From: Candidatus Woesearchaeota archaeon
GTDB taxonomy: Archaea > Nanobdellota > Nanobdellia > Pacearchaeales > UBA284
Assembly (NCBI GenBank): GCA_964500015.1
Contig: CAZCMN010000013.1
Location: forward strand, 1 to 29,077
Length of the DNA: 29,077 nucleotides
Direction: 5' to 3'
Shown here: in pieces, positions 599 to 25,932 of the stretch
Position numbering within the stretch: the stretch's first letter is position 1
Layout: the number at the start of each line of letters is the position of its first letter
Position numbers and translations under genes: made by a program
The notes under the pieces: model-generated
Database searches by the model: none
Told to the model about the DNA's origin: nothing
Seen by the model: the letters and a program-made list of their open reading frames with translations, nothing else

Positions 599-670
599 AA
601 AAGTAGCGGATATAACACATATAAAGTAATGACAAAAAGTTTATAAAGAAAACTATTTTCTACAAAGAAT

Positions 671-809
671 ACTAGAAAACAAGAAACCCTGTTTTTTAGC
701 ATGCTAAAACCATCAAAAATTAAAAATTTTTGTGGCGCCAAAAGTAGAGATATTTTTGAGCGAATCAGAAGATTTTTGGCATGCAGAAAAAGTTTTCTTT
801 TTCTAGCAT
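671..809. repeat. cluster of three abutting palindromic repeat units (family described in findings)
   Basis: Unit 1 is 671-701 (reverse orientation, shortened). Unit 2 is 702-762: TGCTAAAACCATCAAAAATTAAAAATTTTTGTGGCGCCAAAAGTAGAGATATTTTTGAGCG. Unit 3 is 763-808: ...GATTTTTGGCATGCAGAAAAAGTTTTCTTTTTCTAGCA. Units 1 and 2 meet head-to-head at the palindrome TTTTAGCATGCTAAAA (694-709). Confidence 0.7.
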
Positions 810-831
810 AATAATAAAAGGAGATAAAAAA

Positions 832-2231: not shown

Positions 2232-2621
2232 TTAACCCCTTAGATCTTCGATTCTTATGATATGCCAGCCAAATTGTGTCTTGCATAAAACAATATCTCC
2301 TTTCTTGTTATCAAAAACAGCTTTTTCAAATTCTTTGACCATTTGTCCTCTTCCAAATTCATCTAGTGAACCTCCGCGTTTTTTTGAAGGACATAAGGAA
2401 AATTGTTCTGCCATTTCGCTAAAAAGTTTATTAGACTTTTGGTGCGCCGAAAATTGTCCATGCTCAAGAATAGGAGTATTCTTGGGCACACCAAAAAGCA
2501 AAGCTTTTTTAGTGTTTTCGTGCGTTGAGAATGATTCTCCATTTTTTATTTTAGCTAAAATCTCTTTTGCTTGTTCTTCTGTTTTCACAAGAATATGACT
2601 TGCACGAGCTTTGTTTGCCAT
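2232..2621 (-). CDS. parvulin-type peptidyl-prolyl cis-trans isomerase (PpiC/Par10-like) with a 36-aa repeat-derived insertion
   Basis: ASHILVK...AKIKNGESF and SLCPSKKRGGSLDEFGRGQMVKEFEKAVF...QFGWHIIRIEDL match the parvulin fold motifs. The protein is 129 aa versus about 93 aa for single-domain parvulins; the excess is residues 32-67. Confidence 0.8.
   Translation of the reverse strand: MANKARASHILVKTEEQAKEILAKIKNGESFSTHENTKKALLFGVPKNTPILEHGQFSAHQKSNKLFSEMAEQFSLCPSKKRGGSLDEFGRGQMVKEFEKAVFDNKKGDIVLCKTQFGWHIIRIEDLRG
2418..2528. repeat. two tandem palindromic repeat units embedded in frame in the parvulin gene
   Basis: Plus strand reads GCTAAAAAGTTTATTAGACTTTTGGTGCGCCGAAAATTGTCCA, then TGCTCAAGAATAGGAGTATTCTTGGGCACACCAAAAAGCAAAGCTTTTTTAGTG. 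Both match the intergenic repeat consensus. The inserted coding block 2421-2528 is 108 nt (36 codons). Confidence 0.7.
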
Positions 2622-4643: not shown

Positions 4644-5268
4644 AGGTAAGGTGAACTGTTCTAGAACTTAATTTTCCTTTTGCAATTGTTCTCCTTTTTA
4701 ATATTCCTTCTTTGAACTCTTTTAAGTTTTTTGCCTCACATTCAGTATAAGCTTTTCCAACTTCAGATAAAGAATGAGCATCTGATCCTGCACTAGCAGC
4801 TTTGTTTTTTAGTTTTTTATATAGCAAGAATGCTTTTTTGTTCTTATTTCTTGTTCTCCTTGAATTTAAGATTTCTATAGCATCTACCTTTTTTGCATAG
4901 TTTTTGATTTCTTCAAAAGAATGTTTTTTTTCAAATGGATGTGCTAAAATTGCTATTCCATTTTGTTTTTTTATTTCTTTAAGAATATGGGCAAAAGAAT
5001 TTTGATTATAATAATCTGACTTGATTTCTTTTTTTAAAAATAATCCTATAAGTTCAACACCTTCTTTGCATTTAATTTCTTCTCCTAAAATTAATTGCAT
5101 CTTAAGCTTTTTTGCAGCTTGAATTGCATTCTGCCAGCCTTCTGCATTATTATGGTCTGTTATTGCAATTCCATCTAAACCCCGATCTTTGGCTTTTTGG
5201 AGTATTTTAGATGGAGAACAGAGACAGTCAAAAGAATATTTTGTATGGACATGTAAATCGAGTTTCAT
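4594..5268 (-). CDS. PHP-domain metal-dependent phosphoesterase
   Basis: MKLDLHVHTKYS, IAITDHN, ILAHPF and GSDAHSLSEVG are the PHP (polymerase and histidinol phosphatase) His/Asp motifs. Its 3' end overlaps the convergent transferase gene by 50 nt (4594-4643). Confidence 0.75.
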   Translation of the reverse strand: MKLDLHVHTKYSFDCLCSPSKILQKAKDRGLDGIAITDHNNAEGWQNAIQAAKKLKMQLILGEEIKCKEGVELIGLFLKKEIKSDYYNQNSFAHILKEIKKQNGIAILAHPFEKKHSFEEIKNYAKKVDAIEILNSRRTRNKNKKAFLLYKKLKNKAASAGSDAHSLSEVGKAYTECEAKNLKEFKEGILKRRTIAKGKLSSRTVHLTSTFSSWIAFVLKKIFG

Positions 5269-5270
5269 TT

Positions 5271-5322
5271 CAGCAAAAACTCCTTTTTTTGGTGTGCCAA
5301 AGATATTGTTGATTTTTGAGCA
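5271..5322. repeat. palindromic repeat unit
   Basis: CAGCAAAAACTCCTTTTTTTGGTGTGCCAAAGATATTGTTGATTTTTGAGCA, starting 3 nt upstream of the PHP start codon. Confidence 0.65.
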
Positions 5323-5349
5323 TTTTAGTTTTCATTTTTTAATTAGAGA

Positions 5350-5444
5350 CGCCCGGACCAAGAATTGAACTTGGATATCCTTGCGGAAACAACCTTTTTG
5401 ACTTTCGGTTCCAGGGTTGCGCCTTACCATTGGGCCATCCGGGC
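5350..5444 (-). tRNA. tRNA-Ser(GGA) with a 13-nt intron 3' of the anticodon
   Basis: Minus-strand read: GCCCGGA TG GCCC AATGGTA AGGC G CAACC CTGGAA[CCGAAAGTCAAAA]A GGTTG TTTCCGCAAGGATAT CCAAG TTCAATT CTTGG TCCGGGC G. The acceptor is a perfect 7 bp. The 15-nt variable arm and G73 fit Ser. Anticodon-stem closure requires removing about 13 nt at the canonical 37/38 position. I could not draw a strict bulge-helix-bulge. Confidence 0.8.
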
Positions 5445-5445
5445 A

Positions 5446-5499
5446 TGCTCAAAAAACAGGGTTTTTTGGCATACAGAAAACGTTTAGCGTTTTCTAGTA
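5446..5499. repeat. palindromic repeat unit
   Basis: TGCTCAAAAAACAGGGTTTTTTGGCATACAGAAAACGTTTAGCGTTTTCTAGTA, abutting the 5' end of tRNA-Ser. Confidence 0.7.
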
Positions 5500-5666
5500 T
5501 AATTATTTTAATTAAATTCTAGTTAAAAAGCTTGTGATATTTTTTATCTTAAATTTCTTCTGGGCTTTTATTATCTTATTATATATCCTGTTTCATCTAA
5601 AAGTTTAAAAACTTAAACTTCGAGGGATTAAATAAACTTAAATTTAAATTTTAAAAAAGAGATAAA

Positions 5667-6882: not shown

Positions 6883-6958
6883 TTTGATGTATTTTTAATT
6901 TGTAAATTTATAGTATGATTCTATTTAGTGGTTCTGGTGCTTCAAATCTCAAGTACAA

Positions 6959-7013
6959 CGCTAAAAAAGCATGGCTTTTTGGCGTGCCGAAAAACTTCTG
7001 TTTTTCCAGCACG
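6959..7013. repeat. palindromic repeat unit
   Basis: CGCTAAAAAAGCATGGCTTTTTGGCGTGCCGAAAAACTTCTGTTTTTCCAGCACG, about 77 nt upstream of the tmk start. Confidence 0.7.
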
Positions 7014-7082
7014 TTGCAGAACCAAAATTTGGTTTTGTATTTATTTATATGCTATTACTTTTTATTTATTTAGTTCAAGATA

Positions 7083-7136
7083 TGCTAAAAAAATTTAATT
7101 TTTTGGCATACCGGAAATGTCATTCATTTCCGAGTA
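7083..7136. repeat. palindromic repeat unit overlapping the 3' end of glyA
   Basis: TGCTAAAAAAATTTAATTTTTTGGCATACCGGAAATGTCATTCATTTCCGAGTA. The reverse strand encodes the last GlyA residues [13 protein letters not shown] and the stop codon. Confidence 0.7.
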
Positions 7137-8357
7137 TAGTGGAAATTTTGACGTTAAATTCAAAACCTGTTTTTTGATTTCGTTTAATTTTAAAGGGTCA
7201 TTTTTGTTTTTAATTGTTTCTGAAATTAAATTAGCTATGATTTTCATTTCTTCTTCTTTCATGCCTCTTGTAGTTATTGCTGGTGTTCCTAGTCTGATTC
7301 CTGAAGGATCAAATGGACTTTTTTTATCAAATGGAATCATATTCTTATTTACTGTTATTCCTATGCTGTCTAGTAATTTTTCAGCTTCTTTTCCAGGAAT
7401 ATTTTTATTTGTCAAATCTATAAGAATAAGATGTGTGTCTGTTCCTCCGGAAACTAAACGAAATTCATATTTCTTTAGTTCATTAGCTAAGGTTTTTGCA
7501 TTTTTTACAACTTGGTGGATATAATCTTTGAATTCTAGGGTTGAGGCTTCTTTAAGTGCAACTGCTTTAGCTGCATTAACATGATTGTGCGGACCGCCCT
7601 GCATGCCTGGAAAAACAGCCCTATCAATATCTTTTGCAAATTTTTCTTTGCATAAAATCATCGCACCCCTTGGGCCTCTTAATGTTTTATGGGTTGTTGT
7701 TGTAACTATATCTGTAAAGGGAAATGGACTTTGATGGATTCCGGCAACAATCAAGCCAGCTATATGCGAAATATCTGCAAAACTTATAGCGTTTATTGAT
7801 TCTGAAATTTCGTGAATTTTCTTAAAATCAATTTCTCTTGGATAAGCTGATGCTCCTGAGACAATCATCTTAGGTTTTTCTCTTTCTGCAATTTCCTTTA
7901 TTTTTTCATAATCTAATAATTCTGTTTTTTCATCAACACCATATTGAACAAAATTGAAAACTTTTCCTGAAAAATTAATTGGATGTCCATGAGTTAAATG
8001 ACCGCCATGAGCTAAGTTCATTCCCATGACTTTATCTCCTGGATTTAAGAAGGCAAAATAAACTGCTAGATTAGCTGGGCTTCCAGAATAAGGCTGAACA
8101 TTAACATGTTCTGCATTAAAAAGCTCTTTTGCTCTTTTTATTGCTAAGTCTTCTGCTTCATCAATAAATTCATTTCCACCATAGTATCTTTTATGAGAAT
8201 AACCTTCAGAATATTTATTTGTCAAGACAGATCCTAGTGCTTCAAGAACGGCTAAACTTGTGAAATTTTCAGAAGGAATTAATTCCAGGACATTCTGCTG
8301 TCGTTTAATTTCTTTTTGAATTATTGCATAAATTTCAGGATCAATTTTTTGTAACAT
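7095..8357 (-). CDS. glyA: serine hydroxymethyltransferase
   Basis: The SHMT PLP-lysine signature [13 protein letters not shown] is present, with N-terminal [11 protein letters not shown] and YSEGYPxKRYYGG-type motifs. Length is 420 aa. Confidence 0.95.
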
Positions 8358-8430
8358 TTTTTTGTATGCATTTTAAGTTTAGGTAAGCATAAAATATTTA
8401 TTTCTTGCAGGATCTGCTCAGAGCAAACAA

Positions 8431-8483
8431 TGCTCGAAAAATAGGATTTTTCGGCATGTCAAAATCTGTTCGATTTTAACACG
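8431..8483. repeat. palindromic repeat unit
   Basis: TGCTCGAAAAATAGGATTTTTCGGCATGTCAAAATCTGTTCGATTTTAACACG, 74 nt upstream of the glyA start. An 11-nt palindrome TGCTCAGAGCA lies at 8415-8425. Confidence 0.65.
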
Positions 8484-8527
8484 TTGTCCTGCGCAATTAG
8501 TTTTGATTATTAACTCTTCTTCTCGTT

Positions 8528-9904
8528 TTAAGATTTGTCAACTACTAAATTTTTTCCTAACATTGGATGAACTTCATTAATTAGAGTGTGCATTTTTTGA
8601 GCAATTCTTCTATAAGATATGTGGCCCATTTTTCCACTTCTTAACCTTATAAAATGAAAGACTTCTCTTAAATTCATCTTCATTAAGACTCTTTTTCTGT
8701 AAGCTAAAGGCAAGACATACTGGGCTTCTTTAGGAAACTTTTCTTTCATTTTTTTAAATGTTAGATTCGCTTTTTCCATGCATTCTCGATAGTGTAACCC
8801 AAAACCAGCATCCATAATGTCCTGAGGAACTGAGTAACCATAATCTGGACTTAAGTCTGGGTTAATTTGGGTGCAGATTCTATGCCTTTGAATATCTCTA
8901 AATGCCCCATAATCTACCAAAATATCAAAAATATATTCCGGAATTTCAGTTTCCCTTATTGGAATATCATGTTTTTCTAGCCCTTCAAAAGCAGTGTCAA
9001 TTATTTTTTGTTTTTCTTCTAAAGGCAGAGTTTTAACTTTTTCCATAACCTCTTTGAATGGAAGATTAGAATTTTTGTAAATTATGGTTGAAATAAATTT
9101 TTCTTCTGCTTCAGAATCATAATGAACAAGCTCTATGTCGTTTTCAGATTCTTTTTTCTCTCCTTGAATTATTTTTGATATTTCTTCTAGTTTATTCTGA
9201 TTTTTTTCCATAAATTCAGATTTTTCAGCATGTTTCATCAAGGTTGGAGTTATTTTTGAAGAACATTCTTTTAATTCTTGTCCTATTTCCTGCATTTCTT
9301 TTAATGGATTAGATAAAAGTTTTACAATTGCTCTGCTTAAATTTCTTGCATTTATAGTCATTCCAAGATTTGTAAGACATGCAACTGGAAGCATGTAACG
9401 AATATTATCCAAGACCTTGTTCTTTATTTTCATTGCATAAGCACCATCAGTTTCTTCATCTGATTTTACAAATTTGGTTTTCATGTATTCATTCATTTTT
9501 TCAAATAATTCAGTGTATGTATCAATTAAGAAATCGCAAGTTTCTCTGTATTCTTTTCCTACTTCAGAATTTAGAACATTTTCAGGCAAATAATAGTGTT
9601 CTTTGTCAAAAACCTGGTATCTTGTTGATTTTTCTGTGAAACTTGCTAACCTATTATCTTCAATAACTTTTGTGAATAAAATTGAAACATTTTCTAATGC
9701 TATTGACAAGACAGAGTGTTCTGCTATTGAGCTATGGCCATAATTAATAACCCACTTTTCATGGAATTGTCTTGATTTATCTTCATTTAATTCAGAAGCA
9801 ATCTGGTCAAAAGGTTCAGGAGTTCGTGAGGTTTTTGCAAATGCTACAGCAATAACTTCTGGCGGATAGCCGTTTAGAGTATAAATCCTTCTTTTAGCAG
9901 ACAT
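8528..9904 (-). CDS. thyX: FAD-dependent thymidylate synthase ThyX, tandem two-domain form
   Basis: The N-terminal half has HSSIAEH and RLASFTEKSTRY (the ThyX S-x-x-E-x-S-x-RY part) plus RYMLP...NARNL. The C-terminal half has FRDIQRHRICTQ (RHR motif) and NLREVFHFIRLRSG. Length is 458 aa versus about 220-250 aa for single-domain ThyX. Confidence 0.85.
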   Translation of the reverse strand: MSAKRRIYTLNGYPPEVIAVAFAKTSRTPEPFDQIASELNEDKSRQFHEKWVINYGHSSIAEHSVLSIALENVSILFTKVIEDNRLASFTEKSTRYQVFDKEHYYLPENVLNSEVGKEYRETCDFLIDTYTELFEKMNEYMKTKFVKSDEETDGAYAMKIKNKVLDNIRYMLPVACLTNLGMTINARNLSRAIVKLLSNPLKEMQEIGQELKECSSKITPTLMKHAEKSEFMEKNQNKLEEISKIIQGEKKESENDIELVHYDSEAEEKFISTIIYKNSNLPFKEVMEKVKTLPLEEKQKIIDTAFEGLEKHDIPIRETEIPEYIFDILVDYGAFRDIQRHRICTQINPDLSPDYGYSVPQDIMDAGFGLHYRECMEKANLTFKKMKEKFPKEAQYVLPLAYRKRVLMKMNLREVFHFIRLRSGKMGHISYRRIAQKMHTLINEVHPMLGKNLVVDKS

Positions 9905-11336: not shown

Positions 11337-12080
11337 ATGTTCTTTTTATATATGGCCATAAGTATTCAAACAAGAAACAAGTTTATCGCTTTAATAAAAA
11401 AGGGAAAATCTCTCAATGAAATTACAAAAATAACTGGAGTTGGTAAAACAACAGTGTACTATCATATGCGTAAAATCAGGGGTAGAAGAAATAAACCGAT
11501 AACAATTAAAAAAGATAATTTGGAATTGTTAGGAGAAGTTTTAGGATTTTTTGCCGGTGATGGCAGTTTAGTCAATCGGCCGGATAAATGGGATTATAGG
11601 GTAAAATTTTTTTTAAATATAAAAGAGGTTTTGGTAGTCAAAAATTATAATGACTCTATCTCTAGATTTATTGGAAAACCAGCAACCTTATTCAATAGAG
11701 GTTCGATGACAATAATCCAAATTACTTCTAAAGACTTTTGTGAATTTATAAAAGATTATTTAAAATTTGGAAAAAGCAAGACAAAGACAATAGAATTAAA
11801 AAATAAAGATTTATTAAAAAATATTAGATTCACTATTGGATTTATGAAGGGATTAATTGATTCTGATGGATATGTAAGGAAAGATAGAAAGGAGATTTAT
11901 TTTGGTTCAATATCCAGAAAACTGGCAAATGATTTTATCAGTGGACTGAATCTTTTGAGTATACGATTTAAAGAATATATTCAAAAAAGGCAGAATTGTA
12001 ATGATTTTTATAAGATAAGGATTAGTGGTGTAGAAGTAGATAGATTTAATAAAATTATAAAACCTATTAAAGCATCATAA
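11337..12080 (+). CDS. LAGLIDADG-family homing endonuclease with N-terminal helix-turn-helix
   Basis: Two LAGLIDADG motifs (LGFFAGDGSL and IGFMKGLIDSDGYV) are about 100 residues apart. N-terminal HTH is SLNEITKITGVGKTTVYYHMRKI. An alternative start is ATG 11352. Confidence 0.8.
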   Translation: MFFLYMAISIQTRNKFIALIKKGKSLNEITKITGVGKTTVYYHMRKIRGRRNKPITIKKDNLELLGEVLGFFAGDGSLVNRPDKWDYRVKFFLNIKEVLVVKNYNDSISRFIGKPATLFNRGSMTIIQITSKDFCEFIKDYLKFGKSKTKTIELKNKDLLKNIRFTIGFMKGLIDSDGYVRKDRKEIYFGSISRKLANDFISGLNLLSIRFKEYIQKRQNCNDFYKIRISGVEVDRFNKIIKPIKAS

Positions 12081-12086
12081 TGTTAT

Positions 12087-12158
12087 GGGCACGTGGTATA
12101 ATGGATAGTATAAAACCTTGCGGAGGTTTTGATTCAGGTTCGAATCCTGACGCGCCCG
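12087..12158 (+). tRNA. tRNA-Arg(GCG)
   Basis: GGGCACG TG GTAT AATGGATA GTAT A AAACC TTGCGGA GGTTT TGAT TCAGG TTCGAAT CCTGA CGCGCCC G. It forms a 72-nt cloverleaf with a canonical T-loop and G18G19. There is one A5:C68 acceptor mismatch and a wobble-rich D-stem. Confidence 0.8.
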
Positions 12159-12167
12159 TTTTTTAAT

Positions 12168-16025: not shown

Positions 16026-16622
16026 ATGATTCTAATAATTAATACATGTAAAGAAAAACTGCATTATCTTGAATTTGTTAGGCCAATTGAAGAGATTGTA
16101 AAAAAAGAGAGCAAGTTTTTCACCAAACATTATTTTGAAGTTAATTTAAAAGACTTGGAAAAAGCTGAGAAAGTGATTATCTGTGGAACAGCTTTAAAAG
16201 ATTTTGAATATGACCGAGAAATGATGGCTTTTTCATGGCTTAGAGGTTTTGAAAAGCCGATTTTGGGAATTTGTGCTGGAATGCAGATTATTGTAAAGAC
16301 TTTTGATGGAAATTTAAGTGTCCTTGAAAACTCTGAGTTTTTGGGACGCCAAAAATCCCGAGGATTTTTTAGCGAGAAAAAAGAGATAGGTTTAATTAAA
16401 GTTAAATTTGATAAAGATTTTTTAGAAATTAAGAAAGGAGAAGTTGAAGCTTATGCTTTGCATAAGTCTGATGTAATTGGTTTAGGAAAAGATATTGAGG
16501 TTTATGGGAAATCAAAAAAAGGAATTCAGGCTATTAAGCTGAAAAGTAAGGAAATTTATGGGGTAATGTTTCATCCTGAAGCTAGAAATAGGGAAATTGT
16601 TGAAAATTTTTGCAAGAAGTAA
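16026..16622 (+). CDS. class I glutamine amidotransferase-like protein with an 18-aa repeat-derived insertion
   Basis: Nucleophile elbow PILGICAGMQ and the C-terminal His-Glu pair in VMFHPE are present. Residues 100-117 (LENSEFLGRQKSRGFFSE) are encoded by a repeat unit. Confidence 0.7.
   Translation: MILIINTCKEKLHYLEFVRPIEEIVKKESKFFTKHYFEVNLKDLEKAEKVIICGTALKDFEYDREMMAFSWLRGFEKPILGICAGMQIIVKTFDGNLSVLENSEFLGRQKSRGFFSEKKEIGLIKVKFDKDFLEIKKGEVEAYALHKSDVIGLGKDIEVYGKSKKGIQAIKLKSKEIYGVMFHPEARNREIVENFCKK
16323..16375. repeat. palindromic repeat unit embedded in frame in the GATase gene (reverse orientation)
   Basis: The reverse complement reads TCGCTAAAAAATCCTCGGGATTTTTGGCGTCCCAAAAACTCAGAGTTTTCAAG, matching the intergenic units. 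It starts exactly at codon 100 and spans 18 codons. Confidence 0.7.
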
Positions 16623-17046: not shown

Positions 17047-17079
17047 GTTTATCCTCCGTCTTTGTATTTAATGAGTTTA

Positions 17080-17140
17080 TGCTCGAAAATTCAAAAGAAT
17101 TTTCGGACATCACCAAAAACTTTATGGTTTTTGATGAGCA
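17080..17140. repeat. palindromic repeat unit
   Basis: TGCTCGAAAATTCAAAAGAATTTTCGGACATCACCAAAAACTTTATGGTTTTTGATGAGCA, between the albA start and the rps17e stop. Confidence 0.65.
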
Positions 17141-18172: not shown

Positions 18173-18249
18173 GATGTTCTATATCTAAAATTGTATTTAA
18201 ATCTTATTTTTTTAGTTAAATTTAAATACAATTTTTCCCTTTATGATTA

Positions 18250-18301
18250 TGCTAGAAAATGTGAAAACATTTTCTGCAAAGTAAAAACTGTTCGTTTTCA
18301 C
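18250..18301. repeat. palindromic repeat unit
   Basis: TGCTAGAAAATGTGAAAACATTTTCTGCAAAGTAAAAACTGTTCGTTTTCAC, ending 17 nt before the pilus ATPase start. Confidence 0.6.
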
Positions 18302-21419: not shown

Positions 21420-22223
21420 GTGAACTTGAAAATTGTATCAATCATTGTTGGAATTTTGATAGTGATAGCTTCTTTGATATTCTTACTAAATTCTAAATTT
21501 CTATTTTTGGTTTTGGGGATAGCTGTAATAATTGGGGCTGCTCCTTTTTTACTGTCTTTTTTAGCTAAAGAGAGCAAGGAAAAAGAAAAAGAGGAGATGT
21601 TCTTGCTGTTTTGCAGGGATTTAGTTGAATCTGTCAAGTCAGGAACTCCTTTATCAAAAGGTATCTTAAATCTTTCAAATAAAGTGTATGGTTCTTTAAC
21701 AGAGCACACTAAAAAATTAGCAAGTCAAGTAGCTTTGGGAATTCCTGTAAGGCAGGCGTTCTTGACTTTTTCAAATGATGTAAAAAGTAATGTAATTTCT
21801 AGAGCAATTTCTTTGATTACCCAGGCAGAGAGTTCAGGAGGAGAGATTTCTAGTATTTTGGATGCTGTTGTTTTGAATATTTCACAGATAGAAGAGATTA
21901 AAAAAGAAAGAGTTTCAAGAGTTTATAGTTTTGTTGTACAGGGTTATATCATCTTCTTTATATTCTTGATTATAATGTTGTTTGTTCAAGTAAAATTTAT
22001 GCCATTAATTTTTAATTCTTTTTCAACTGAATTGGGAAGTAAAACCGATTCCATGAATGTTATAGACAGAGCTTTTTTTATTTTGATTCTAGTTCAGGCT
22101 TTATTTACAGGACTAGTTGTAGGAAAATTAGGTGAAGGAAAGATAAAATCAGGGATTAAGCATAGTGCTATCCTGTTAGTTATATCTTTCTTGTTTTTGG
22201 CTTTGTCAAGAATTCTCGCTTAA
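21420..22223 (+). CDS. FlaJ/TadB-like type II secretion system F-domain membrane platform protein (part 2)
   Basis: GTG start 1 nt after the upstream stop. The order is TM helices, then a T2SSF-like domain (FCRDLVESVKSGTPLSKGI...ISLITQAESSGGEIS), then TM helices. Confidence 0.7.
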   Translation: MNLKIVSIIVGILIVIASLIFLLNSKFLFLVLGIAVIIGAAPFLLSFLAKESKEKEKEEMFLLFCRDLVESVKSGTPLSKGILNLSNKVYGSLTEHTKKLASQVALGIPVRQAFLTFSNDVKSNVISRAISLITQAESSGGEISSILDAVVLNISQIEEIKKERVSRVYSFVVQGYIIFFIFLIIMLFVQVKFMPLIFNSFSTELGSKTDSMNVIDRAFFILILVQALFTGLVVGKLGEGKIKSGIKHSAILLVISFLFLALSRILA

Positions 22224-22230
22224 ACTCTAA

Positions 22231-22278
22231 TTCTCGAGCACACCAAAATAGGAAATTTAGCTGTGTCCAGAATTTTGG
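22231..22278. repeat. degenerate palindromic repeat unit
   Basis: TTCTCGAGCACACCAAAATAGGAAATTTAGCTGTGTCCAGAATTTTGG. The GAGCACACCAAAA core resembles the unit at 2485-2497. This is the weakest member. Confidence 0.4.
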
Positions 22279-22292
22279 TTTAGATATGTAGG

Positions 22293-23024
22293 TTAATTTT
22301 TAGCTTTTTTCCATAATATTTCAAAATTTTTTTTGTAACCTTCAACAACATCCTTATCTTTTATTAAAACTCCGTAAGGATTATCTGTAAATATTGTAAT
22401 AGCAACATAGTCTGCAATAATAACGGTTTCTGTTAATTGTTCAAATTCCTGTGGAAGAAATTTAATATGGGTGTAGGGTAATTTGTTTATATCTTCTCCA
22501 TAATCTCTAATTGTTGCATCAAAGACTTGTCTGGATTTTATCTTTCTAGCTATTCTTTTTATATGCAAATTTCTCCACCAATCTTCTCCCATGACATGAT
22601 AGGTTACCCGTTTTCCACCTCCAAAAGTGTTATATTCTTTTCCGCCAGAATTGAGTAAAGTATTGTACATTTGAGTTATCCCCCTTTTTCCTCTAAAAAT
22701 TAAAGCTTCTTTTTCTTTCTTACCAGATTCTCTTTTCTTTTCTAATTCAGGTAAGATTTTTTCAAATCTTATTTTTTTATCTTCAAGGTAATTAAAAAAG
22801 TTTTTTGGATCTGTTGCTTGATAAATTTTTCTCTTTCCTTCAAGTATAAAGCTAATCAAACCTTTCTCAATTAGACTATTAAGTGCTCTATGCACAACCG
22901 AATTTTGTAATCCTGTTTTTTCAAGTAATGGGCCTGCATTTAAATTTCCAAATTCTAGAAGGCCAATGTAAACTTTGATTTCAGAATTTGTCAATCCCAG
23001 TTCTTCTAGTATTGATATGTCCAT
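22293..23024 (-). CDS. TrmB-family transcriptional regulator
   Basis: N-terminal winged HTH LGLTNSEIKVYIGLLEFGNLNAGPLLEKTGLQNSVVHRALNSLIEKGLI is typical of TrmB. The C-terminal domain of about 130 aa is uncharacterised. Confidence 0.8.
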   Translation of the reverse strand: MDISILEELGLTNSEIKVYIGLLEFGNLNAGPLLEKTGLQNSVVHRALNSLIEKGLISFILEGKRKIYQATDPKNFFNYLEDKKIRFEKILPELEKKRESGKKEKEALIFRGKRGITQMYNTLLNSGGKEYNTFGGGKRVTYHVMGEDWWRNLHIKRIARKIKSRQVFDATIRDYGEDINKLPYTHIKFLPQEFEQLTETVIIADYVAITIFTDNPYGVLIKDKDVVEGYKKNFEILWKKAKN

Positions 23025-23116
23025 ATATTCTACAAATTGAATCTATTTTTAAGCTTTTCCATATATAGTCTCTTTTAGGAGGATATATCATTTAATACTC
23101 CTAGTTCATATAACTA

Positions 23117-23138
23117 TTATCAAGTAACAACTTGATAA
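23117..23138. promoter_or_regulatory. candidate operator: perfect inverted repeat TTATCAAGT-N4-ACTTGATAA
   Basis: Arms are 9 bp with no mismatch. The site lies in the divergent intergenic region, 35-56 nt upstream of ATG 23173 and next to an A/T-rich TATA-like stretch. Its TATCA...TGATA half-sites recall TrmB-family operators. Confidence 0.5.
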
Positions 23139-23172
23139 ATAAAATAAGTAAATTTGAAGGAGAAAAATAAAA

Positions 23173-23628
23173 ATGAACTTAAAAAAAATATTGGGTATGA
23201 CTGTTTTAGGTATTGTCCTAGGATTAAGTGGATGCAAAAAAATTGATAAAAACTCTACTTGTGATTTTACTGAAAGATATTATTTAGATACTAAATTGTA
23301 TGACGCCACTGTATTTACAAAGACTATTGGAAAAGGTCTTTACGGCGATCAAAGAGAAAGGATAAGGACCATTTTGGCTTTAAGAAAACCAGAAGCAAAA
23401 TCAGATTTTTGGGGTATAATTTGGCCAGATACACTTAGAGCAATAGATTATGATTTAGATGGCAAATTTGACGAAGTTTGTGCAAATCAATCCAGCGGTC
23501 CTTGTAATGACAACTTTTTAGAGAGAGTCGTTAAAGACTTTGAATTTTTGTATCGAAGAGAATATGGCCCTGTTTGTGATGGCACAATAAGAATACCAGA
23601 AGCACACGAATATATAGGGGAGAAATAA
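23173..23628 (+). CDS. hypothetical lipoprotein
   Basis: Signal peptide with lipobox VLGLSGC. AAGGAG RBS 11 nt upstream. DYDLDGKFDE is a Ca-binding-like DxDxDG loop. Six further Cys residues. Confidence 0.6.
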   Translation: MNLKKILGMTVLGIVLGLSGCKKIDKNSTCDFTERYYLDTKLYDATVFTKTIGKGLYGDQRERIRTILALRKPEAKSDFWGIIWPDTLRAIDYDLDGKFDEVCANQSSGPCNDNFLERVVKDFEFLYRREYGPVCDGTIRIPEAHEYIGEK

Positions 23629-23630
23629 AA

Positions 23631-25883
23631 ATGTGCGGAATAGGTGCGATATATGGTAAGAAAATTCCAAAAAAGGAATTTTGGATTAAGAGAAGCCTAG
23701 ATGTAATCCCACATAGGGGATACGCTTTAAATGAGTCTATGGTATTTGATAATTGTGCTCTCGGTGTAAATAGATTGCAAATAGTTGATAGAGATAATGC
23801 CAAACAACCCTTAGAAAACGAAGATAAGACTATTTTTGTTGTTTTGAATGGGGAAGTATTCAACCATGAACAATTAAGAGAAGAGTTGACAAAAAAAGGA
23901 CACAAATTCAAAACAAAATCTGATACAGAGGTTCTTGTTCACTTATGGGAAGAATACAAAGAGGAAATGGTTCATAAGATAGATTCTGAGATGTTTGCCC
24001 TTTTTGTTTATGACAAGAAGAAAAATATATTCTTTGTTGCAAGAGATCCTTATGGAGTTAAACCTCTGTATTATGCAGTAGATTGTCTAGGAAATTATCA
24101 TTTTGCATCTGAAATAAAACAATTAACTCAATTCAAAGAAATAGATGAAGTAAAATTCTTTCCTCAAGGGCACTACATGCTAGATGGAAAACTAATAAAA
24201 TATCATGAAATACCCAAAGAAAACGATAAAATTGAGGAAAATGAAGGAATAATAATCAAGAAATTAAGAAGATTATTTGATGAGGCAGTTAAAAAAAGAG
24301 TAAATACCGACTTGCCTGTCGGAGTTTTCTTTAGTGGGGGTCTTGATAGTGCTGCAATTTTAGCTACAGCAGTAAAATACCACAATAATGTTACTGCCTT
24401 TATTGTTGGATACCCAAATTCTCCCGACGTAGTTGTCGCCAAAAAATACTGCGAAGAGAATAATATCCCCCTAGTTTATTTTAATCCACCTGCAGAAGAA
24501 GAATTAGCAAAGATTATTCCCGAAATAGTCTACATAACTGAAAGTTTTGAGCCAAACATGATTAGGCAATCTGCTGTTTCATACTACATCTCAAAAATAG
24601 CAAGGCAATACAATTTTAGAATCATCTTGTGTGGAGAAGGTCCAGATGAAATCTTCGCAGGCTATCCAGAATTTAAAAATTGTCTAAATGATAAAGGAAT
24701 ATCCAATAAGATTTACACTTTTATTAAGAACCTTCCAAGAACCCAATTTCAGAGAGTTGATAGAACTTCAATGCAGTTTACTTTAGAGGTTAGGGTTCCT
24801 TTTTTTGATACTGCCTTTGCAGATTATGCAATAAGAATTCCAAGTAAATTGAAAGTTAAAACAATCAATGGAAAGAAAGTCACCAAGTGGATCTTAAGAG
24901 AAGCTATGAAAGACAGACTACCCAATTACATCGCCAATAGGGAAAAAGTTGTTTTAAGTGAAGGTGCTGGATACAAAGGAAACCAATTAGTCGGCGGATT
25001 GTTTTTTGATATTGTTCAAAAAAGGATTAATGAAAATGAATTTCAAAAAATTAAGAATGATTATCCAAAATGGAATATAACAAACAAAGAAGTTGCATAT
25101 TATTTTAAGCTATATGCTAAACATTTGTTTACAAAAGCAGAGTTCAATCAAGAAAGACCATTAGTTAATGCTATTGATAGTATTAAAGATGAAGAAATTG
25201 AAGAAAAAGCAGAAAAAATTTTGATTGGCATGAAAAAATATTCTCTTTTTGATAGAAAAGAAACTAAGAAATTTAATGATTTTCAAGAATTGAAAGGCTT
25301 GGTTGTTAACCAAATTAAAAATAACTTGAAGATACAGGTAGTGGGATATTGGGGAATAGAAAAGGAAAATGCAGATGAAAAGGATATAACTGCCTTGGAT
25401 AATCTTAGAACTTTCAAGAATATTATTCTGAAAAACTATCCTAATGTTGAAATTCTTTTGATTTTAACTGATATTCATGGAGAAGCAAATGAAGTAAGTG
25501 AAGAAATAAGAAAGAAATATTTTGGTTTTATTAAAGAAATATCTGAAGAATATGGTTTCAAAGTAATGTTCTTAAGTAAATTATGGAAAGAGAATAAAAT
25601 CGATTTAAAGGGTATCTTAAAATTAGAGAATCTAAATAATGTTCCAGAGATAGTTGTTAAATCTGGTTTTAAACACTATCTTGGTAAAAACAAGTTAGAT
25701 GGTGCAAGGCTATATTCCTTAATTTCAAAGCACGATTGTCAGTTTATAGAAAAGAAATTTCAAAATGCAATATTCTTCACATATAACAGTGCAGATTGGA
25801 AAGAACTTTTACCAAAACTTCCAACAATTTCACTTTTTCCTCTAGAGAAAGGGGAGAGAATCAAACCATGGCATATAAAATAG
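23631..25883 (+). CDS. asnB: asparagine synthase (glutamine-hydrolysing) family amidotransferase fused to an uncharacterised C-terminal domain of about 230 aa
   Basis: N-terminal MCGI (Ntn Cys2), NGEVFNHEQLREEL, and the PP-loop VGVFFSGGLDSAAI with the synthetase domain run to about residue 510. Residues of about 520-750 (YWGIEKENADE...ILLILTDIHGEANEV...) match nothing I recognise. The start is 3 nt after the lipoprotein stop. Confidence 0.85.
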   Translation: MCGIGAIYGKKIPKKEFWIKRSLDVIPHRGYALNESMVFDNCALGVNRLQIVDRDNAKQPLENEDKTIFVVLNGEVFNHEQLREELTKKGHKFKTKSDTEVLVHLWEEYKEEMVHKIDSEMFALFVYDKKKNIFFVARDPYGVKPLYYAVDCLGNYHFASEIKQLTQFKEIDEVKFFPQGHYMLDGKLIKYHEIPKENDKIEENEGIIIKKLRRLFDEAVKKRVNTDLPVGVFFSGGLDSAAILATAVKYHNNVTAFIVGYPNSPDVVVAKKYCEENNIPLVYFNPPAEEELAKIIPEIVYITESFEPNMIRQSAVSYYISKIARQYNFRIILCGEGPDEIFAGYPEFKNCLNDKGISNKIYTFIKNLPRTQFQRVDRTSMQFTLEVRVPFFDTAFADYAIRIPSKLKVKTINGKKVTKWILREAMKDRLPNYIANREKVVLSEGAGYKGNQLVGGLFFDIVQKRINENEFQKIKNDYPKWNITNKEVAYYFKLYAKHLFTKAEFNQERPLVNAIDSIKDEEIEEKAEKILIGMKKYSLFDRKETKKFNDFQELKGLVVNQIKNNLKIQVVGYWGIEKENADEKDITALDNLRTFKNIILKNYPNVEILLILTDIHGEANEVSEEIRKKYFGFIKEISEEYGFKVMFLSKLWKENKIDLKGILKLENLNNVPEIVVKSGFKHYLGKNKLDGARLYSLISKHDCQFIEKKFQNAIFFTYNSADWKELLPKLPTISLFPLEKGERIKPWHIK

Positions 25884-25932
25884 TGCAGTAAAATAGCCAA
25901 ATTCTTTTATATGGCTGATTTCTGTTAAATTT

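Follow-up and report, generated by a model that had tools for sequence, protein, structure and literature searches.

Palindromic repeats lying in frame within genes are known from Rickettsia, as the Rickettsia palindromic elements (RPEs; Ogata et al. 2000 and 2002, summarised in PMC10969869). Among other small dispersed elements of prokaryotes, the REPINs (doublets of repetitive extragenic palindromes) are reported as extragenic and 'not detected in archaea' (10.1101/2021.07.10.451892), and the classical MITEs (miniature transposable elements with inverted repeats) include Correia/NEMIS, ERIC/RU and the SM elements of Sulfolobus (PMC10969869, PMC2759123). A large census reports a high MITE density in some DPANN genomes, with ~90% of the elements intergenic and in-frame insertions undescribed (PMC11602168), and our own search of the literature, which was not exhaustive, found no report of in-frame insertions of such elements in archaea. 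Here we describe a 54-nt double-hairpin repeat in a 29,077-nt stretch of archaeal DNA (contig CAZCMN010000013.1 of assembly GCA_964500015.1, Candidatus Woesearchaeota archaeon; hereafter the window, G+C ~30%), where it is inserted in frame in the gene for a small peptidyl-prolyl isomerase of the parvulin family. The insertion had been proposed from inspection of the sequence (the original prediction) and is confirmed here; L and P numbers denote the loci and proteins compared.

The parvulin open reading frame (ORF) encodes a 129-residue protein of the Par10/PpiC type whose whole domain is matched by the Pfam families Rotamase_3 (E=7.6e-22) and Rotamase (E=1.1e-18). It aligns to Escherichia coli Par10 (1JNS) in two pieces, residues 3-32 and 67-124 corresponding to Par10 residues 2-31 and 30-88, and in an alignment of 16 sequences, the other 15 being parvulins both close and distant with E. 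coli Par10 among them, a single block of 36 residues is unmatched. In DNA alignments the block appears as one clean 108-nt gap against four orthologous loci (L001, L002, L004 and L005). The original prediction had named 36 residues in excess of the compact Par10/PpiC layout, encoded by 108 nt at 2421-2528 with the frame preserved and no stop codon; the residue count, the length and the open frame are all borne out, but the limits had been set by codons, and the exact DNA segment (Table 1) lies 3-4 nt further left. The empty site reads TTCTC-AAAAA-TGGCA and the filled site TTCTCAA[CGCACGAAAAC…CTTTTTAGCG]AAATGGCA; since five A's are present in both, there is no target-site duplication. Removal of the 108 nt in silico gives …GESFSKMAEQFS…, identical at this point to the orthologue P0003. 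That the insert might be a chimeric join within the parvulin gene, driven by the repeat during assembly, is very improbable. Short-read assemblers can be misled by dispersed repeats, and the protein forms a cluster with a single member, but the junctions are exact to the base, removal of the insert restores the orthologue, and a separately assembled 7.4-kb contig from the European Nucleotide Archive (L006) is 100% identical to the window over 7301 nt, insert included. Equivalent in-frame copies are also present in further genes as well as in independent samples, one of them (P0241) on 4 contigs.

The insertion is specific to this lineage, as comparison of orthologues had been expected to decide. 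The closest orthologues (P0002 and P0003) are 91-92% identical outside the block, 92-93 residues long and insert-free, and all close relatives have 92-94 residues. The 129-residue parvulin is unique among 1789 homologues, and none of the best 120 of these carries the 36-residue insert. Those homologues that are named belong to Candidatus Pacearchaeota; some relatives (P0004, P0013, P0020 and P0045) are 188-residue proteins made of two tandem parvulin domains. When the 36 residues were compared with 1.84 billion representative proteins, nothing was found but P0361, a 1929-residue ORF of ~35 tandem 55-residue repeats that probably represents the translation of a satellite whose A/T-run palindromes are similar. 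We give practically no weight to the idea that the block is an old, functional, lineage-specific extension of parvulin that merely resembles a repeat: it is missing not only from orthologues 91-92% identical but from every other homologue listed, only that satellite-like ORF resembles its peptide, and its DNA matches a repeat profile. Apart from the open frame, nothing speaks for this idea.

This profile, a hidden Markov model (HMM) for nhmmer, was built from eight copies of the repeat elsewhere in the window, with the parvulin copies left out (self-matches E=3e-13 to 6e-8). It matches positions 2458-2514 over its full length (E=7.1e-6) and positions 2417-2457 in part (E ~0.01-0.03), and this agreement with an independent profile of a dispersed repeat confirms the proposed derivation of the insert from the intergenic repeat. 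The family has at least 12 copies in the window, most of them intergenic, and a half-unit pattern finds six matches in the window where shuffled sequences give 0.00.

The unit has the consensus TGCTMRAAAA-loop-TTTTYGGCA|TGCCRAAAA-loop-TTTTYKAGCA, that is, two adjacent and mutually inverted imperfect hairpins, each with one conserved one-base bulge. Individual copies fold as two adjacent hairpins with z between -3.4 and -7.5. In a structural alignment of 64 distinct copies, drawn from the window, from relatives and from metagenomes, the proposed pairing is satisfied in 90.8% of cells, against 79.0±0.6% in shuffles and 27-56% with slid partners. Changes on both sides are seen in 15 of the 20 pairs, with covariation in both hairpins, and compensatory cells number 175 against 51±5.6 in shuffles, none of 500 shuffles reaching 175. 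This pattern in the alignment argues that the hairpins are maintained by compensatory change. The palindrome from ATGCT to AGCAT is most often 56 nt long (29 of 63 copies), with its outermost A/T only ~50% conserved; since the net insertions measure 54 nt, TGC…GCA, of 54 nt or 18 codons, is the mobile unit. Neither a GT[AG]G nor a CGTC tag was found at the hairpin foot, which is TGC/GCA with untagged flanks. Each copy has on average 3.07 of 6 frames free of stops, against 1.65±0.11 in composition-matched shuffles.

The insert is itself highly structured as a single strand (z=-4.3), and the organism has a spliced tRNA intron, so that removal before the mature protein is formed, either as an archaeal bulge-helix-bulge RNA intron or as an intein-like peptide, must be considered. 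We judge this extremely improbable: the bulges of the hairpins are of a single base, where such an intron would have a 4-bp helix between two 3-nt bulges, and the exon flanks are non-complementary and unpaired, in both respects unlike archaeal introns of this class. There are no intein motifs, 36 residues are far too few for an intein, and an Rfam scan of the window yields tRNAs only.

The insert holds two copies of the unit, as the original prediction had it, and the cores and arms that it quoted are found in the sequence; its head-to-tail arrangement did not stand, since one 54-nt unit appears to lie inside the other. We term the inner, complete unit B and the interrupted outer one unit A. 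On the coding strand the arms follow in the order w w w' w w' w' w w', which makes a head-to-tail pair impossible. Deletion of 54 nt starting anywhere from 2454 to 2460 leaves a remainder that matches the profile over its full length with 16-17 bits, compared with ~10 in place, and 54 is the best deletion length among the 40-69 tested. In the minimum-free-energy fold (z=-4.3) insert positions 1-10 pair with 72-80 and enclose two hairpins, with a fourth hairpin following; the 5' arm of unit A there finds its partner, TTTTCGGCG, at 72-80. Unit B by itself is predicted to form two hairpins (z=-4.6) and shows 84% complementarity to the intergenic copy at 6957-6994 over 38 nt. The tandem reading is rejected on arm order, deletion scan and fold, and nesting is favoured. 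Unit A also shares its reading frame with a copy in a glutamine amidotransferase (GATase) gene and gives a similar peptide (FSAHQKSNKLFSE and FLGRQKSRGFFSE respectively): alone, unit A would read THENGQFSAHQKSNKLFS, and the single GATase copy reads VLENSEFLGRQKSRGFFS, the two being clearly similar. The order of events would then be unit A first and unit B later.

Comparison with relatives argues, at the level of sequence, that the family is mobile. In 3 x 20.5 kb of syntenic DNA from a relative ~80% identical (L013-L015) there are no profile matches, and every window copy in the shared region falls in DNA that is extra and specific to the window. Two other relatives (L001 and L011) bear copies at different sites, L011, a Pacearchaeota metagenome-assembled genome (MAG) from Lac Pavin, having three or four elsewhere. 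Such differences in presence and absence between relatives, seen for a short multi-copy unit, are a MITE-like trait. The full-unit pattern occurs in more than 118 stretches of Joint Genome Institute metagenomes, and the profile confirms 65 of 80 metagenome loci among the matches listed, with 97 copies, mostly at 29-40% G+C. The longer pattern had three matches in viral contigs, none confirmed by the profile. A first half-unit pattern, ATGCTMRAAAAN{4,13}TTTTYKGCA, was discarded as too unspecific, its 73 single matches in viral contigs including none confirmed by the HMM.

In-frame insertion of the element extends beyond parvulin. The GATase gene of the window carries a single unit of 18 residues or 54 nt (SVLENSEFLGRQKSRGFF) that is missing from 15 of 15 orthologues compared, up to 81% identical, and appears as a 54-nt gap against L013 whose boundary is ambiguous by ±4 nt; the block sits just after the nucleophile elbow. 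Two adenylate kinases also carry copies. P0241 (L101:395-454; found on the 4 contigs mentioned above) is 18 residues or 54 nt longer than orthologues 86-89% identical, and P0246 (L210, gene 1832-2551) has an 18-residue copy where its nearest relatives, 77-80% identical, are insert-free. For adenylate kinase the exact length of 18 residues comes from these close orthologues; alignments of the adenylate kinase and alanyl-tRNA synthetase (AlaRS) inserts to PDB entries gave approximate lengths only (13-15 residues), since in them part of the element peptide is matched to the native linker. P0241 and P0246 are not sisters, yet their copies lie at the identical nucleotide (GAAAAA|ATGCT…CTAGC|ATA). 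In P0246 the copy matches one in the AlaRS gene of L162 at 51/54 positions and that of P0241 at only 42/54, and the simplest reading would be two independent insertions at one exact site. Copies of different subfamilies at the same nucleotide would imply either a very specific target or repeated precise loss. The AlaRS gene (L162) and a PheRS-beta gene (L161) are probable further cases of in-frame insertion.

Elsewhere the element bears on the ends of genes. The parvulin gene of L001 has its own 53-nt copy (L001:4250-4303, equivalent to window position ~2610) inside codons 3-4: GCAAACA[CTAAAAAATC…TTTTTATGCATA]AAGCAAG. This copy frameshifts the old start, and the element gives GGAGG and a new ATG, such that MHKAR… replaces MANKAR… at the N-terminus of the protein. 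In several copies the end coincides exactly with a start codon (…GGAGG-T-run-AGC-ATG), and 7 of 128 unit ends have such an ATG at offset -1. Ribosomal protein uS11 (L128) and a metallo-beta-lactamase-fold (MBL) hydrolase (L134) have their ATG formed by the element terminus, and a portable ribosome-binding site with start codon is seen at element ends in L128, L134, L143, L165, L115 and at window position 5267-5323.

From these observations we consider it likely that the 36 residues derive from a small mobile element, non-autonomous and present here in two copies, which has spread through a DPANN (Pacearchaeota-like) lineage. Unit A would have inserted precisely, leaving the target unduplicated, between the codons for Ser and Lys in …GESFS|KMAEQ…, at the junction of parvulin helices 1 and 2, giving an intermediate that would read …THENGQFSAHQKSNKLFS…; unit B would later have entered the loop of unit A's first hairpin. 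As the unit is 18 codons long and poor in stops, both steps left the frame open. The element would owe its movement to an enzyme acting in trans that recognises DNA hairpins, and the facts that bear on this enzyme are the precise, duplication-free insertion, the constraint on two hairpins, the nesting in a hairpin loop and the reuse of one site. The most likely candidate for the mover would be a single-strand transposase of the HUH/Y1 type (IS200/IS605- or RAYT-like, RAYT being the REP-associated tyrosine transposases), which would explain both the seamless junctions and the repeated use of one exact site. Cut-and-paste movement of an ordinary MITE by a DDE transposase acting on terminal inverted repeats, with the missing duplication an artefact of A-rich and ambiguous junctions, seems to us unlikely. 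It would suit a palindromic unit whose ends are inverted repeats (TGC…GCA) and the high MITE density of some DPANN genomes (PMC11602168), and the AT found on both sides of the adenylate kinase junction can be read as a 2-bp duplication. That AT, however, belongs to a covarying stem (columns 5/34: UA 44, CG 16), the parvulin junction with its five A's in both states leaves no room for a duplication, and none was found at the parvulin, GATase or adenylate kinase junctions. Constraint extends over the whole length as two bulged hairpins, not over the termini alone, and neither a DDE transposase nor a longer parent element was seen in the window.

Several points weigh against the account of two nested mobile units in a living gene. 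Nesting is drawn from profile scores and a predicted fold, and there is no allele with unit A only among the 1789 parvulin homologues. The contig L006 may come from the same population as the window, or from the same reads. No conserved target or flank motif was found over 63 copies, nor any conserved tetra- or pentanucleotide next to the left end of the unit. The link to a transposase is weak: a phmmer search with an IS608 TnpA sequence gave one real Y1_Tnp gene and one spurious match. The real one (PF01797, E=7e-22; L165:2933-3406) lies on a contig with three element copies, but it has HVQ in place of HUH (its Tyr motif is YVKNQDQHH), stands 0.8 kb from the nearest copy, has different flanking hairpins of its own, and is the only Y1_Tnp in 0.42 Mb. 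We regard it as a lead, not an association. The 20 window ORFs scanned showed no Y1/HUH gene, and a search of the window and loci brought up neither an autonomous parent insertion sequence with shared termini nor a RAYT gene with copies on its flanks. The unit is a multiple of three in length with about half of its frames open, so that an open ORF is weak evidence of function. Finally, the window parvulin has the replacement G87D (GGSLDEFG, compared with GGSLGEFG) at a nearly invariant position where more than 90% of homologues have Gly; this Asp is the only hint of possibly relaxed constraint.

The last two of these points would equally suit a young pseudogene, the insertion having killed the gene and the frame remaining open only because the element is a multiple of three and stop-poor: with half of all frames stop-free across copies, an open one comes cheaply. 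This is distinctly unlikely in view of the state of the gene. All 17 of the 17 columns invariant in 100 homologues are kept, including H9, C77 and H120, so that the active-site His…Cys…His and core residues are present. The dN/dS ratio is 0.04-0.05 against three relatives, equal to the value among insert-free relatives, and the ~3 private replacements in the lineage of the window parvulin are similar in number to those of the relatives. The frame has survived two successive insertions, and the family is also in frame in the essential adenylate kinase and probably in AlaRS and PheRS-beta, which cannot all be dead. The predicted structure agrees: in the AlphaFold2 model of the 129 residues the core has a confidence (pLDDT) of 87-93, and Foldseek gives target-normalised TM-scores of 0.80-0.83 to 1JNS (Par10), 2M08 and 6XD8, the model matching Par10, NmPin and PrsA domains. 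As had been anticipated for a loop after helix 1, the parvulin fold is kept and the insert forms a low-confidence excursion between helices 1 and 2 (residues 30-57, pLDDT<50), its distal end lengthening helix 2 (H59-74). We infer that the gene is still functional and that the insert is probably translated, or 'exonised', the product being in prediction a parvulin whose catalytic core is intact and whose surface bears a flexible excursion of 36 residues. The oligo-T tracts of the insert were also considered as a block to expression and rejected, tracts of T5 or longer occurring at 4.9 per kb on the sense strands of the window.

Table 1. Parvulin gene, parts of its insertion and other repeat copies in the 29,077-nt window.
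Feature	Position	Strand	Basis
Parvulin (Par10/PpiC-type peptidyl-prolyl isomerase), 129 aa, host of the insertion	2232..2621	minus	ORF + Pfam
Insertion of two nested 54-nt units (nesting favoured), residues ~33-68 (THENTKKALLFGVPKNTPILEHGQFSAHQKSNKLFS)	2417..2524	minus	108-nt gap vs L001, L002, L004, L005
Unit B, inner complete 54-nt double hairpin, encoding TKKALLFGVPKNTPILEH	2460..2513	minus	full-length nhmmer match
Unit A, 3' 43 nt, coding strand (GGACAATTTTCGGCGCACCAAAAGTCTAATAAACTTTTTAGCG)	2417..2459	minus	partial HMM matches
Unit A, 5' arm (CGCACGAAAAC), parted from its partner arm by unit B	2514..2524	minus	fold
Array of ~five hairpin modules (2.5 units), the last a full unit at 756-811	669..811	plus	nhmmer E=6e-8; weaker matches 684-761
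Copy whose end lies 3 nt upstream of the start of the PHP-domain gene (5268, minus)	5267..5323	plus	nhmmer E=5e-9
Copy abutting the 5' end of intron-containing tRNA-Val	5444..5502	plus	nhmmer E=3e-13
Intergenic copy, thymidylate kinase / serine hydroxymethyltransferase (SHMT)	6955..7014	plus	nhmmer E=9e-13; ~220 nt window-specific DNA vs L013
Copy overlapping the SHMT gene (7095..8357, minus) at its 3' end	7080..7139	plus	nhmmer E=7e-11
Intergenic copy, ThyX / SHMT	8427..8485	plus	nhmmer E=8.5e-11; ~160 nt window-specific DNA vs L013
Single unit in frame in class-I glutamine amidotransferase (ORF 16026..16622)	16321..16374	plus	nhmmer E=4e-11
Diverged intergenic copy, Alba / S17e	17078..17132	plus	nhmmer E=0.0026; window-specific DNA vs L013
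Degenerate copy upstream of secretion ATPase gene	18247..18298	plus	pattern 18249-18278; ~49 nt extra vs L013
Copy upstream of small Arg/Lys-rich ORF, GGAGG in second loop	28904..28959	plus	nhmmer E=7e-10

The parvulin gene is accompanied by genes for CDP-archaeol synthase, two CDP-alcohol phosphotransferases, a diphthamide synthesis protein and the intron-containing tRNA-Val. These neighbours are of archaeal kind and, together with the Pacearchaeota homologues, place the window in a DPANN archaeon. The array of hairpin modules resembles a cluster of bacterial interspersed mosaic elements (BIMEs) and lies upstream of a SepF-like gene. The copy next to the PHP-domain gene supplies GGAG upstream of the ATG of that gene and is not present at this site in L001 and L002. 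The tRNA-Val(AAC) gene with its intron occupies 5348-5445, and L001 has unrelated sequence at the position of the element; as the element abuts the 5' end of the tRNA, the promoter must lie within it. In the SHMT gene the final ~11 codons and the stop come from the element, where relatives end …KFPLYPELNKL* (L013) and …HFPLYPELD* (L011).

The window has other features besides the repeat. A free-standing ORF at 11337-12080, which combines a helix-turn-helix at its N-terminus with a homing-endonuclease domain of the LAGLIDADG_3 family, adjoins tRNA-Arg (12086-12159), and L013 has a guanylate kinase gene at this position. A 3.6-kb block at 22223-25899, missing from L013, encodes a TrmB-like regulator, a 151-residue ORF that belongs to no family and an asparagine synthase of 750 residues. 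The ThyX gene at 8528-9904 encodes 458 residues with two Thy1 stretches, and its genome matches are one Pacearchaeota MAG (L011, 68%) and otherwise only Thermoflexus/Anaerolineae of the Chloroflexi (40-43%); the gene may thus have passed from one domain to the other.

Until now the in-frame spread of selfish palindromic DNA into conserved enzymes was essentially a Rickettsia curiosity, and the same behaviour in an unrelated and much smaller DPANN element suggests a general outcome of genomes that are small, reduced and AT-rich. The insertions in parvulin, GATase, adenylate kinase and aminoacyl-tRNA synthetases are a natural experiment on the tolerance of loops to insertion. They also matter for the annotation of DPANN MAGs, where the element creates spurious length variants, replaced gene ends (the SHMT tail) and moved starts (the L001 parvulin and uS11). 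One can go further and suppose, as a tentative possibility that we do not favour, that this is the first archaeal counterpart of the REPIN-RAYT system: a 54-nt double hairpin moved as single-stranded DNA by an HUH/Y1 enzyme, with site-specific and scar-free insertion and possibly scar-free excision, which would have evolved to be 'translation-compatible' (18 codons, stop-poor, a preferred frame and a terminal GGAGG-N9-ATG) and would sit in essential genes or give them new starts and C-termini. If an HUH mobiliser is indeed responsible, REPIN-like systems would be extended to archaea, and the element would represent a compact system for seamless, site-specific insertion of DNA.

Set beside the classical MITEs, the element is likewise small, non-autonomous and multi-copy, is occasionally fused to ORFs within genes and can donate regulatory or start signals, but it differs in its 54-nt unit, for which no transposase-related parent or target-site duplication was found, and in the constraint on its internal hairpins. 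In haloarchaea, palindrome-associated miniature elements derived from IS200/IS605 have hairpin ends and insert seamlessly, site-specifically and without duplication. The present element shares with these the archaeal host, the hairpin ends and the seamless insertion, whereas its 54-nt unit is much shorter and no conserved tetra- or pentanucleotide was found beside the left end. With REPINs and BIMEs, doublets that are mobilised by the HUH Y1 transposase RAYT, it has in common two short, inverted, imperfect palindromes in a doublet of ~50-100 nt, hundreds of copies, a missing target duplication, compensatory change in the hairpins and occasional arrays (669-811); unlike REPINs, it lacks a GTAG/CGTC tag at the foot, its doublet has no spacer and several of its copies lie inside coding sequences. 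For the comparison with the REPIN-RAYT system the one enzyme lead is the IS200-like gene on contig L165. The likeness to RPEs drawn in the original prediction reaches further than parvulin, to GATase, two adenylate kinases and probably AlaRS and PheRS-beta. It holds for the in-frame behaviour, a dispersed palindromic repeat in unrelated housekeeping genes that leaves the ORF open, gives a recurring peptide and occupies sites tolerated by the host fold, in a small reduced genome. It fails for size, the 54-nt unit being far below the ~100-150 bp of RPEs, and the archaeal host, the nested double hairpins and the mostly intergenic location are further differences. The separation from RPEs is one of host, length and architecture, and we class the element as RPE-like or REPIN-like, and as new in archaea.

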